The notes: generated by a model from the sequence alone, not told the origin. DNA of 64,000 nt from a bacterium (GCA_043825615.1 JBDRRS010000012.1:1-64000), one strand, 5' to 3'. Numbered from the stretch's first letter, positions 1 through 4,280 are shown. Translations and numbers: made by a program.

Positions 1-50
1 CTGCGTTCGGGACGCAGAGGTCGGCGGTTCAAGTCCGCCCACCCCGACCA
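1..50 (+). tRNA. 3' portion of a tRNA-Pro(CGG) copy (anticodon stem to CCA), cut by the window edge; inverted relative to the complete copy at 1854-1930
   Basis: Bases 1-50 are identical to the 3' 50 nt of the complete tRNA at 1854-1930 (anticodon stem CTGCG/CGCAG, loop TTCGGGA, T-arm GGCGGTTCAAGTCCGCC, acceptor CACCCCGACCA). Confidence 0.6.
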
Positions 51-203
51 TTTCAAACTTGTTGCGCGATTTTCAAAAAAATTCGGTGAGCGGAGCTCAC
101 CGTTCTTTTCGGAATTTCCGGAATCCCCCTCTGAAGAAAACAAAAAAGACCACGGCTTTTCTAAATCCAGAAGAAAGGTTTTGTCCAGCAGGCGGCGGTT
201 CGT
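1..203. repeat. Left arm of a ~203-bp inverted repeat (tRNA-Pro 3' part plus ~150 bp of downstream flank with a terminator-like hairpin); it may continue left of the window
   Basis: The reverse complement of 1-203 matches 1701-1903 with only about three mismatches (position p pairs with 1904-p). Confidence 0.85.
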
Positions 204-1700: not shown

Positions 1701-1903
1701 ACGAACCGCCGCTTGCTGGACAAAACCTTTCTTTTGGATTTAGAAAAGCCGTGGTCTTTTTTGTTTTCTTCAGAGGGGGATTCCGGAAATTCCGAAAAGA
1801 ACGGTGAGCATCGCTCACCGAATTTTTTTGAAAATCGCGCAACAAGTTTGAAATGGTCGGGGTGGGCGGACTTGAACCGCCGACCTCTGCGTCCCGAACG
1901 CAG
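1701..1903. repeat. Right arm of the ~203-bp inverted repeat
   Basis: Near-identical reverse complement of 1-203. It includes the hairpin GGTGAGC-atc-GCTCACC followed by a T-run, which is the terminator of the tRNA. Confidence 0.85.
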
Positions 1904-1960: not shown

Positions 1961-2038
1961 AACCGCCGACCTCCCGCCCTTGGCGTCTTCGTCCGCCTGC
2001 GGCGGGGCGGACACCCTAGCCAACTGGGCCACACCCCG
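1961..2038 (-). repeat. tRNA-Pro-derived pseudo-tRNA repeat, copy A. It carries the tRNA 5' 26 nt, a 41-nt GC-rich hairpin insert in place of the anticodon arm, and the variable region plus T-stem 5' strand, and lacks the 3' half.
   Basis: It shares CGGGGTGTGGCCCAGTTGGCTAGGG and AGGTCGGCGGTT with the real tRNA, and has the internal hairpin GTCCGCC-CCGCCGCAG-GCGGAC. It is about 94% identical to copy B. Confidence 0.7.
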
Positions 2039-2039
2039 T

Positions 2040-2282
2040 CTATTTGGATAAAATATTTTTCAAAAATTTGCGGCCTAAACCGCTTTTGAAAAACCTTTCT
2101 CTTTTCATCGCTGTCGCTCGCGACAAAAACTTTTCATAATATACTATTTTCCAGAGTCCCCGTATACCGGCATAATGTCTTTTTTCATTATTATGTTCAA
2201 ACAATCTTCTTTCCAAATTATTCGTATGTCCGTAATAATATTTCCCGCTGTTCTCGCTTTTTAAAACATAAGCAAAATACAT
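2040..2282 (-). CDS. Small GIY-YIG (URI-domain) endonuclease family protein
   Basis: 80 aa with YVLKSENSGKYYYGHTNNLERRLFEHN, i.e. the GIY..YIG, Arg, Glu and Asn catalytic core. Confidence 0.75.
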   Translation of the reverse strand: MYFAYVLKSENSGKYYYGHTNNLERRLFEHNNEKRHYAGIRGLWKIVYYEKFLSRATAMKRERFFKSGLGRKFLKNILSK

Positions 2283-2287
2283 TTAAT

Positions 2288-2365
2288 AACCGCCGACCTT
2301 CCGCCCGAGGCGTCTTCGTCCGCCTGCGGCGGGGCGGACGCCCTAGCCAACTGGGCCACACCCCG
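2288..2365 (-). repeat. tRNA-Pro-derived pseudo-tRNA repeat, copy B, a direct repeat of copy A
   Basis: 78 bp with the same architecture as 1961-2038 and 4-5 substitutions; it sits immediately upstream of the GIY-YIG start codon. Confidence 0.7.
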
Positions 2366-2404
2366 AAAGAAGTATTAAATATCAAAAAAAAGAGTTTTAT
2401 TCAA

Positions 2405-2755
2405 TTATTTGGAAAGTATTTTGAAGATGGAATCAAGTTCCTTCTTTGCCTTTTTAAGCATATCTATCGCCACAGGATTCTGTTCTATCGGAAGTTGTAT
2501 CTGCTTGTCGCTGGTTTTCGATTTCAGGAGTTCTTTCTTTGCGCCGGCAATCGTAAACTTCTTTTTGTAAAGAAGGTCCTTTATTTCTTCTATCAGGTGT
2601 ATGTGCGACACCGTATATCTTCTCTGGCCGGACTCCCTTCTGATGGGCCGGAGCATCCTGAATTCCTTCTCCCAGTAGCGCAGAACATGCGGAGGAACTT
2701 TCGTCATGCCGCTCGTTTCTTTAATCGTAAAAAATTTCTTGCCTGGAATAAGCAT
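2405..2755 (-). CDS. MerR-family transcriptional regulator
   Basis: N-terminal HTH FTIKETSGMTKVPPHVLRYWEKEF is typical of MerR; 116 aa; translationally coupled to the upstream HU/IHF gene. Confidence 0.8.
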   Translation of the reverse strand: MLIPGKKFFTIKETSGMTKVPPHVLRYWEKEFRMLRPIRRESGQRRYTVSHIHLIEEIKDLLYKKKFTIAGAKKELLKSKTSDKQIQLPIEQNPVAIDMLKKAKKELDSIFKILSK

Positions 2756-4244: not shown

Positions 4245-4280
4245 GCAAAATAATAATTTGCGGTCCGCCTGAGGCGGATG
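4245..4280 (-). terminator. Putative rho-independent terminator after the SPFH gene
   Basis: On the minus strand the hairpin TCCGCC-tca-GGCGGA is followed by a T-rich tract (ccgcaaattattatttt). Confidence 0.4.

Follow-up and report, generated by a model that had tools for sequence, protein, structure and literature searches.

A hairpin-interrupted tRNA stub and a minimal GIY-YIG nuclease gene as a candidate selfish cassette at bacterial tRNA genes

The question raised by this locus is what a gene for a very small nuclease is doing between two near-copies of part of a tRNA gene, just ahead of the intact tRNA gene. The DNA comes from a bacterium (GCA_043825615.1 JBDRRS010000012.1:1-64000), and "the window" refers to the whole 64-kb stretch that was analysed. 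A preliminary description of the window had reported an 80-aa GIY-YIG gene bracketed by two 78-bp direct repeats made of tRNA-Pro pieces. It had proposed a module of repeat, nuclease and repeat that could excise or amplify by recombination, with the repeat possibly acting as a tRNA-like structured RNA.

The features lie on the minus strand in the order promoter-like block, copy B, ATTAA, the 80-aa GIY-YIG ORF, 1 nt, copy A, 30 nt, tRNA-Pro(CGG) and a terminator-like hairpin (Table 1). The coordinates of both repeats, their near-identity (4 mismatches per 78 nt), the gene between them and the distances (ORF start 5 nt from copy B, ORF stop 1 nt from copy A, copy A 30 nt from tRNA-Pro) all agreed with the preliminary description. 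A repeat search of the window returned the direct repeats as a single 82-nt family (1957-2038 and 2284-2365, 95% identity), which is the 78-nt unit plus four common nucleotides (ATTA) on the ORF side. The reuse of tRNA-Pro pieces was likewise confirmed. Nucleotides 1-27 of tRNA-Pro are identical to nt 1-27 of copy B and copy A matches over nt 1-25 (C26>T); the closing 12 nt of each copy, AGGTCGGCGGTT, end inside the T-loop. The division into 26 nt of tRNA and a 41-nt hairpin given earlier is within 1-2 nt of the measured anatomy. The first 25 nt of tRNA-Pro occurred 3 times in 64 kb vs. 0 expected, and ARAGORN called one real tRNA, tRNA-Pro(CGG). At E ≤ 10 Rfam also matched a tRNA fragment at the window edge (1-47), and an inverted tRNA-Pro copy lies at this left end.

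Table 1. Positions of the features at the tRNA-Pro locus, counted from the first letter of the window
Feature	Position	Strand	Description
Promoter-like block	2376-2404	minus	TTGAAT (2404-2399), 17 nt, TATTTA (2381-2376); ~10 nt upstream of copy B
Copy B, pseudo-tRNA stub	2288-2365	minus	tRNA-Pro nt 1-27 + 39-nt hairpin insert + tRNA nt 45-56
GC-rich palindromic insert of copy B	2300-2338	minus	TCCGCC...GGCGGA, in place of the anticodon arm
Minimal GIY-YIG nuclease gene, 80 aa (predicted)	2040-2282	minus	PF01541; SLX1-like / UPF0213 family
Copy A, second pseudo-tRNA stub	1961-2038	minus	Anatomy as copy B; C26>T and three hairpin changes
39-nt GC-rich insert of copy A	1973-2011	minus	
A/T-rich 30-nt spacer	1931-1960	minus	Opens with ATTA, as does the ORF leader after copy B
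Intact tRNA-Pro(CGG)	1854-1930	minus	ARAGORN; Rfam tRNA 66 bits
Terminator-like hairpin and T-run	1802-1820	minus	34 nt past tRNA-Pro

Alignment of the orthologous loci showed the TTGAAT-17-TATTTA block to be invariant in all of them, empty and full alike (see below). A strict sigma-70 consensus scan did not call it. The block is probably the native tRNA-Pro promoter, which would now drive copy B, the ORF, copy A and the tRNA, and the terminator-like hairpin is likely to end this transcription unit.

The product of the ORF is predicted to be a minimal SLX1-like (UPF0213) GIY-YIG nuclease. Pfam GIY-YIG (PF01541) matched residues 1-69 (E 4.6e-14, 52.9 bits vs. a cut-off of 22.6) and was the only Pfam domain in the 80-aa protein, which is thus a stand-alone catalytic domain; no DNA-binding or specificity domain was found in it by Pfam or PDB comparison. 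The nearest PDB relatives were the UPF0213 entries 1zg2 (E 1.1e-10) and 1ywl (E 4.1e-10), followed by SLX1 (7wme, E 3e-4). Residues Y5, Y16, G18, R26, H30 and E50 were invariant in 6 homologs, and we take the Tyr, Arg, His and Glu residues to be the catalytic positions of the fold. As judged from codon comparison with the closest homolog (locus L001, Elusimicrobia, 75% identical), the ORF is under purifying selection (dN/dS 0.11, with dS saturated). The two ORFs are 78% identical in nucleotides and the neighbouring MerR genes 73%; this similar divergence is as compatible with long vertical residence as with recent invasion. The family is large (22,182 clusters of 50% identity at E ≤ 1e-3, with 5,921 remaining at E ≤ 1e-10; almost all fall within 79-130 aa). 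No identical protein was on record in an exact-protein look-up, and no PHROGs family matched. Among 2.9 million viral contigs only 2 weak homologs were found, one of which lies next to a tRNA stub where its contig ends, so that a phage vehicle is not supported.

The closest homolog stands at the orthologous site, in the order gpsA, HU, MerR, one stub, ORF, one base and intact tRNA-Pro. Its stub is composed of tRNA-Pro nt 1-27, 15 nt (TCCGCCGGAGGCGGA) to which the insert of copy B is homologous, and tRNA nt 45-55. Remoter homologs were found 2-28 nt upstream of tRNA-Arg, tRNA-Ile and tRNA-Lys. A scan of one genome per species yielded 422 relatives, from which the best 80 loci were examined, and counting every copy at these loci gave 98 homologous small GIY-YIG ORFs. 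A same-strand tRNA started between -48 and +100 nt from the ORF stop in 51 of the 98 ORFs (from the best 80 loci), a position at which, on a rough reckoning, chance would place a tRNA in well under 1% of cases. A tRNA ended within 150 nt upstream of the ORF in 16/98, and 64/98 had a tRNA on either side. The earlier view of a small tRNA-associated nuclease module was upheld; the 51 ORFs lie directly upstream of their tRNA. At least 14 tRNA identities were involved (Arg, Gln, Ser, Asn, Glu, Gly, Val, Met, Lys, Pro, Ile, Leu, Thr, Asp), and the hosts include Patescibacteria, Bacteroidota, Ignavibacteria, Chlorobiota, Planctomycetota, Omnitrophota and Elusimicrobia. Two of the carriers are cultured strains, Pseudozobellia thermophila DSM 19858 (L081) and Pseudotenacibaculum haliotis KCTC 52127 (L046).

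The preliminary description had proposed a search of other genomes for GIY-YIG genes flanked by such a unit. In 45 of the 51 tRNA-adjacent loci the 5' part of the tRNA was found a second time just ahead of the ORF, mostly at 100% identity. The recurrent unit in these 45 loci is a hairpin-interrupted tRNA 5' stub, the ORF and an intact tRNA, and the repeat-nuclease-repeat arrangement was given up as the defining unit. In about 23 of the tRNA-adjacent loci the ORF has no stop codon of its own and ends on tRNA U8-A9-G10 (TAG) or on a D-loop TAG; in such cases a given transcript should serve either RNase P cleavage or full-length translation, not both. Mirror-image modules, in which an intact tRNA is followed by the ORF and by a 3' stub with a T-loop hairpin, were also observed (e.g. 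L016, L025, L026, L059, L085, L087), as were tandem arrays of stub with hairpin and ORF (six identical 391-nt units in L087, two units in L047, four to five in L039). Sub-clades of the protein track tRNA type and hairpin type, a correlation which is confounded by host taxon. The use of the protein tree to infer horizontal transfer was dropped, the taxonomy of MAG bins being unreliable; the tRNA-Arg of the 'Thiohalospira' locus L043, for instance, is identical to that of Bacteroidales loci. When metagenomes were scanned for a tRNA-Pro D-arm joined to the TCCGCC hairpin, the only locus returned was L088, which is L001-like and cut off at the locus end, and there was no second occurrence of the expanded 39-nt hairpin form.

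The stub duplicate is nearly always interrupted by a GC-rich palindrome with the ends YCCGCC...GGCGGR. In 16 loci the palindrome cleanly separates two neighbouring tRNA positions (most commonly 21|22 of tRNA-Arg), and in 6, L001 among them, it takes the place of some of the tRNA, frequently the anticodon arm, as it does in the window; in the remaining 22 loci with a recognisable stub (22/51), tRNA similarity past the hairpin was absent, or too short or decayed to score. Stub ends fall either within the anticodon stem-loop (nt 33-44) or within the T-loop (nt 54-61), and hairpin length varies across loci from 14 to 178 nt. Under a strict definition (6 or more perfect pairs including 5 or more G-C, loop of at most 40 nt) a GC-rich hairpin was found in 38/51 loci vs. 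24/604 control windows (4%). A perfect 20-mer, CCTGCCTGCCGGCAGGCAGG, was found again in at least 8 loci, and the palindrome pattern occurred 4 times in the window vs. 0.05 expected.

This inserted palindrome is the only convincing local structure of the 78-nt unit (insert of copy B folded as DNA, -12.5 kcal/mol, z -1.9). Conservation is limited to the hairpin, and palindromy by itself fits a DNA and an RNA role equally. The suggestion that the whole unit is a tRNA-like structured RNA was rejected: the two copies folded like their shuffles (z +0.16 and -0.32), the genuine tRNA-Pro having z -2.1, and ARAGORN gave them no score. Rfam 15 at E ≤ 10 found the genuine tRNA, with no match on copies A and B and no intron ribozyme, and on 19 related loci it left the stubs unmatched save for one partial tRNA match in L065. 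A dispersed REP- or MITE-like repeat was also rejected as an account of the hairpin, since the 64 kb contain only a single other TCCGCC-N3-GGCGGA, which lies at 4264-4278 in a terminator-like setting. A search for a template of the hairpin in the ORF and ~3-kb flanks of the type-1 loci checked found scattered 6-nt half-sites, one in an ORF, but neither a second palindrome nor an obvious template. A pure 5'-UTR role of the hairpin is unlikely, because it occurs in the truncated copy both 5' and 3' of the ORF.

Related loci were then compared at the orthologous tRNA-Pro site, for which the neighbouring MerR protein was used as query and the contexts were read and aligned. Four arrangements were distinguished. 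In the empty allele (L089/L090, L094-L097) the leader is followed by tRNA-Pro; in the full allele (L001/L002/L008/L088) one short-hairpin stub, the ORF and the tRNA are present; in the relic allele (L091/L092) a degenerate stub and hairpin and the last ~25 nt of the ORF precede the tRNA; and the window has copy B, the ORF, copy A, 30 nt and tRNA-Pro. The HU-MerR block of L089/L090, whose site is empty, is 98.2% identical to the window over 624 nt, and tRNA-Pro is 100% identical in all orthologous loci. The preliminary description had held that the same two copies in relatives, without polymorphism, would indicate a fixed tandem duplication; comparison of the locus in relatives found a polymorphic site. 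Its proposal of excision and amplification was borne out in part. Gain and loss alleles exist at the tRNA-Pro site and arrays exist in L087 and L047, but recombination between the repeats as their mechanism stands only as a rival account, and an unlikely one.

In the alignment the native leader precedes the stub and the 3' end of the ORF precedes the intact tRNA, which identifies the stub as the gene's original 5' end; what was duplicated is the stretch with which the working tRNA now begins. Copy B stands at the native position behind the native leader, and copy A stands where L001 has its intact tRNA. Copy A had been taken for the right-hand bracket of the module. It is best read, from this alignment, as the stub of a second, tRNA-proximal cassette of which the ORF was deleted, since copy A with its spacer matches the relic state and the spacer has ATTA in common with the leader after copy B. 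The 30-nt spacer would then probably be a remnant of the deleted second ORF, its similarity to the ORF ends being weak. Copy B and the ORF are, on the best reading, the canonical and live cassette. The tRNA part of the stub is conserved at 27/27 positions between copy B and L001 although synonymous sites are saturated. In the same stretch the ORF-less relic L091 differs at 4-5 positions and copy A at one. This points to constraint on the stub, or to gene conversion, lasting only while the ORF is intact.

Our preferred reading, which we hold to be somewhat probable, is that positions 1931-2365 contain two tandem copies, one of them decayed, of a small selfish cassette that invades tRNA genes. 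We infer that it spreads in a homing-like manner, and nuclease-driven homing is put forward as the mechanism with similarly guarded confidence. The cassette, ~330 bp in length, encodes only a predicted minimal SLX1-like GIY-YIG nuclease. The loci themselves show that it occupies tRNA genes of many types in many phyla, that a partial duplication makes the host tRNA whole, that the truncated copy contains a palindrome, and that the cassette is gained or lost and amplified. On its entry into a tRNA gene the 5' part of the tRNA would be duplicated. The copy behind the native promoter and leader would become a truncated stub with a GC-rich hairpin, here with the anticodon arm replaced and an end in the T-loop, and a complete tRNA would be rebuilt directly after the ORF, which leaves the host its tRNA and puts the nuclease under the control of the tRNA promoter. 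The nuclease would cut cassette-free tRNA genes, which would be repaired from the cassette-bearing copy with tRNA sequences as homology arms. Arrays could come from repeated self-homing, which an intact target beside the cassette would explain, or from unequal crossing-over, and recombination between stub and tRNA would remove the cassette precisely. The hairpin may disable the stub as a nuclease target or recombination partner; it may also be a cruciform or hairpin bound by the SLX1-like structure-specific nuclease, or an RNA handle.

Several observations sit uneasily with homing. Sequence-specific homing is hard to picture for an 80-aa bare catalytic domain that has no DNA-binding domain. 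In classic homing the insertion destroys the endonuclease's own site. In the full allele the stub is broken by the hairpin and the ORF junction, but the intact tRNA is unchanged in sequence and differs only in having the 3' end of the ORF in place of its leader; as the rebuilt tRNA is identical to the presumed target, site destruction is not obvious. The homing reading explains neither the escape from self-cleavage nor the conserved hairpin inside sequence derived locally from each new tRNA type, and no obvious horizontal vehicle was seen in the viral contigs. The empty allele could itself represent loss and not a never-invaded site. The cassette is at best HEG-like and not a typical HEG: presence/absence polymorphism was found and a specificity domain was not.

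Among the rival explanations, a mini integrative element is unlikely. A small circle carrying a truncated tRNA fragment would recombine with the chromosomal tRNA in Campbell fashion, with the nuclease only stimulating the event. A circle with a 5' fragment would yield stub-ORF-tRNA and one with a 3' fragment tRNA-ORF-stub, both of which were observed, and precise empty alleles and tandem arrays also exist. Against it, the cassette has no recombinase, the neighbouring serine recombinase belongs to a separate element, the repeats are short (27 + 12 nt here) and split by the hairpin, and no circular junction or free copy was seen. Doubtful, and a little less probable than the circle, is a locus that is not mobile at all, in which a host housekeeping or repair nuclease is co-transcribed with tRNAs and the tRNA fragments are local tandem duplications fixed by drift. 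Strong purifying selection, ORF divergence parallel to that of the flanking genes, the very large family (22,182 clusters at E ≤ 1e-3) and the near-absence from viral contigs would all suit such a nuclease. Drift accounts poorly for the three-part architecture with at least 14 tRNA identities in many phyla, for a conserved hairpin within the stub, for empty, full and relic alleles among close relatives, and for arrays of up to 6 identical copies.

We give no greater credence to a nucleic-acid partner, according to which the hairpin and the tRNA-derived arms, as RNA made from the tRNA promoter or as a DNA cruciform, form a bipartite guide or handle, or the substrate of the SLX1-like enzyme. In its variant as a specificity module, an equally tenuous proposal, the palindrome in the interrupted stub would be the protein's handle (an RNA hairpin within the co-transcript or a DNA cruciform) and the two tRNA-identical arms would address the nuclease to tRNA genes. 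In its favour, the protein lacks any specificity domain and its SLX1 relatives are structure-specific nucleases (PMC1564403). Target-identical segments flank the hairpin on both sides in at least 16 loci, the hairpin always lies in the transcription unit of the ORF, on its 5' or 3' side, and conservation of the stub goes with a live ORF, decay setting in once the ORF is lost. Hairpin type tracks protein clade, subject to the confounding by host taxon noted above. The stub is sense-strand, however, and a guide of this kind would direct the enzyme to the intact tRNA gene in cis as well; past the hairpin the segment is decayed or absent in 22/51 loci, the hairpin ranges from 14 to 178 nt, and the unit as a whole folds no better than shuffles and has no Rfam family. 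An intron in the tRNA gene, group I with a HEG or other, is very improbable. Stubs do often end in the anticodon loop (nt 33-41), where bacterial tRNA group I introns sit (PMC13011429), and the NCBIfam 'group I intron endonuclease' model gave a weak match (E 0.0025, far below its cut-off). The ORF fills the entire gap, however, Rfam at E ≤ 10 gives tRNA only, and splicing copy B to the tRNA 3' part would produce a molecule without an anticodon; with no ribozyme core, and a complete tRNA after the ORF in place of a 3' exon, the intron reading is effectively refuted. An integrase-mediated tRNA island was also set aside, as there is no recombinase between the repeats and the repeat is the 5' part of the tRNA and not its 3' end.

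The cassette was compared with known systems. Prophages and islands that integrate at tRNA genes do so by an integrase, with an attP that carries the 3' end of the tRNA. The cassette resembles them in having an intact tRNA and a direct repeat of part of it, and the mirror-image 3' form has the same geometry; it differs in its size (~0.3 kb), in having no integrase, in the commoner 5' duplication and in a repeat interrupted by a palindrome. The T4 protein SegB has about 220 aa and includes a DNA-binding region, whereas the chromosomally encoded protein here is an 80-aa member of the SLX1-like/UPF0213 branch. Partial duplication of the target tRNA and the conserved palindromic hairpin in the stub also set the cassette apart, seg genes not being known to have anything of the kind. 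SegB, encoded within the T4 cluster of tRNA genes, is a free-standing homing endonuclease of the GIY-YIG type with a 27-bp site that includes a conserved tRNA T-arm motif (PMC2330249), and it is the precedent by analogy with which homing is proposed here. The likeness lies in a GIY-YIG gene among or at tRNA genes without an intron, and the tRNA-Pro stub here ends in the T-loop. Like tRNA group I introns with HEGs, the cassette is a selfish insertion in a tRNA gene that keeps a working tRNA, at positions overlapping nt 33-38; unlike them, it rescues the gene at the DNA level, by repeating a 5' or 3' portion of the tRNA, and not by RNA splicing, and it has no ribozyme. A 2026 survey of insertions in bacterial tRNA genes lists introns only, with HEGs of the LAGLIDADG, PD-(D/E)XK and HNH types and no GIY-YIG (PMC13011429).

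By sequence the protein is a member of the UPF0213 / prokaryotic SLX1-like stand-alone proteins, a minimal catalytic domain with no auxiliary domain. For these proteins, we know of two NMR structures and of no function. They are treated as vertically inherited repair-type nucleases of which the role is not established (PMC1564403), and the phylogenomic study of the GIY-YIG superfamily makes no mention of tRNA linkage, stubs or hairpins (Dunin-Horkawicz et al., 2006, PMC1564403). No description of the module was found in Rfam or in the searchable full-text literature, most subscription journals being outside this coverage, and we provisionally regard it as undescribed.

The combination of tRNA adjacency, partial tRNA duplication, a conserved palindrome and empty, full and relic alleles would offer the UPF0213/SLX1-like family a testable role as a tRNA-gene-invading selfish element. 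Partial gene duplication would be a third harmless route into an essential RNA gene, beside intron splicing and the restoration of att sites by integrases. If the hairpin and stub direct the nuclease, this would be a very compact programmable nuclease. If the stub were indeed the specificity module, it would mean homing guided by a nucleic acid or by structure, with the smallest known nuclease fold as its building block, and a biological role for a large family. The cassette would also explain many annotated 'partial tRNA' fragments and over-long GIY-YIG gene calls. A serine recombinase lies near the locus, as a second element on the same tRNA. It is separable from the cassette, with only a remnant in L001 and L094 and absence from other loci, and its use of the same tRNA-Pro marks tRNA loci as hot spots.

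The tRNA-Pro that adjoins the GIY-YIG cassette in the window is also used by a second mobile or invertible element. An inverted repeat, composed of the 3' part of tRNA-Pro and ~156 nt downstream of it, flanks the gene of a large serine recombinase (coordinates in the table), and as the repeat contains the tRNA-Pro 3' part, a second, inverted copy of the tRNA starts to the left of position 1. At two orthologous tRNA-Pro sites, one with the full cassette (L001) and one empty (L094), the tRNA is followed by no more than a truncated remnant of the recombinase, oppositely oriented, and at another empty site (L089) even this remnant is absent. The inverted repeat around the recombinase, together with this distribution of remnants, points to the second element. 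On the MerR side, window 2366-2405 was compared with L089 1183-1270, and identity, 98% as far as the MerR stop codon, fell sharply at precisely that point to 88% with gaps. Relative to the window, L089 has 47 additional nt ahead of the promoter block, and the 12 nt immediately before the tRNA differ. The break may represent a recombination or co-conversion tract linked to gain or loss of the cassette.

Coordinates and positions of features in the window and in loci of other genomes (L handles)
Feature	Location	Strand	Remarks
Inverted repeat	window 1-203 and 1701-1903		203 nt, 98%; flanks large serine recombinase gene
Large serine recombinase ORF	window 1571 to <1	minus	Resolvase + Recombinase + Zn_ribbon domains; at least 523 aa, continues past window edge
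TCCGCC-N3-GGCGGA hairpin, third in window	window 4264-4278		TCCGCCTCAGGCGGA; directly after SPFH/Band-7 gene
Tandem array	L087 719-2922		six 391-nt units, 3' of tRNA-Lys
Tandem array	L039 839-2293		
Tandem array	L047 1498-2064		
tRNA-Met-like copies	L058 1229-1500		near-full-length
ORF stop, L013, L014, L020, L023, L030, L035, L036, L040, L043, L046, L052, L054, L055, L065, L074	10 nt inside tRNA		
ORF stop, L010, L021, L034, L050, L069, L079, L081	22-23 nt inside tRNA		

At three loci, identical units of hairpin-bearing tRNA stub and GIY-YIG ORF were arranged as tandem arrays, and the stub in L087 carries two hairpins, one in place of the anticodon arm and the other in the T-loop. The copies in L058, which lie both before and after the ORF, have TCCGCC-GAAAA-GGCGGA in place of the D-arm and were still scored as tRNA-Met by ARAGORN. 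For the hairpin at the third site in the window, the position is terminator-like and no tRNA sequence adjoins; the TCCGCC/GGCGGA stem type may therefore be no more than a stem that terminators of this genome commonly have.

In ~23 loci the GIY-YIG ORF lacks its own stop codon and terminates within the tRNA, either at the conserved U8-A9-G10 (TAG) or at a TAG in the D-loop. With the stop located within the tRNA, a precursor cut by RNase P would give a non-stop mRNA. In many database gene calls of the family, 99-130 aa in length, the domain does not begin until residue ~20-40 (representative proteins P0021, P0022, P0024-P0029, and others), and a small number of calls contain two domains in 205-214 aa. 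The additional length probably comes from calls that extend too far, across the GC-rich stub, or from fusion of array copies, and not from genuine N-terminal domains.

The module was also found at tRNA-Arg in two isolates, Pseudotenacibaculum haliotis KCTC 52127 (L046) and Pseudozobellia thermophila DSM 19858 (L081), which are cultured and suitable for experiments.
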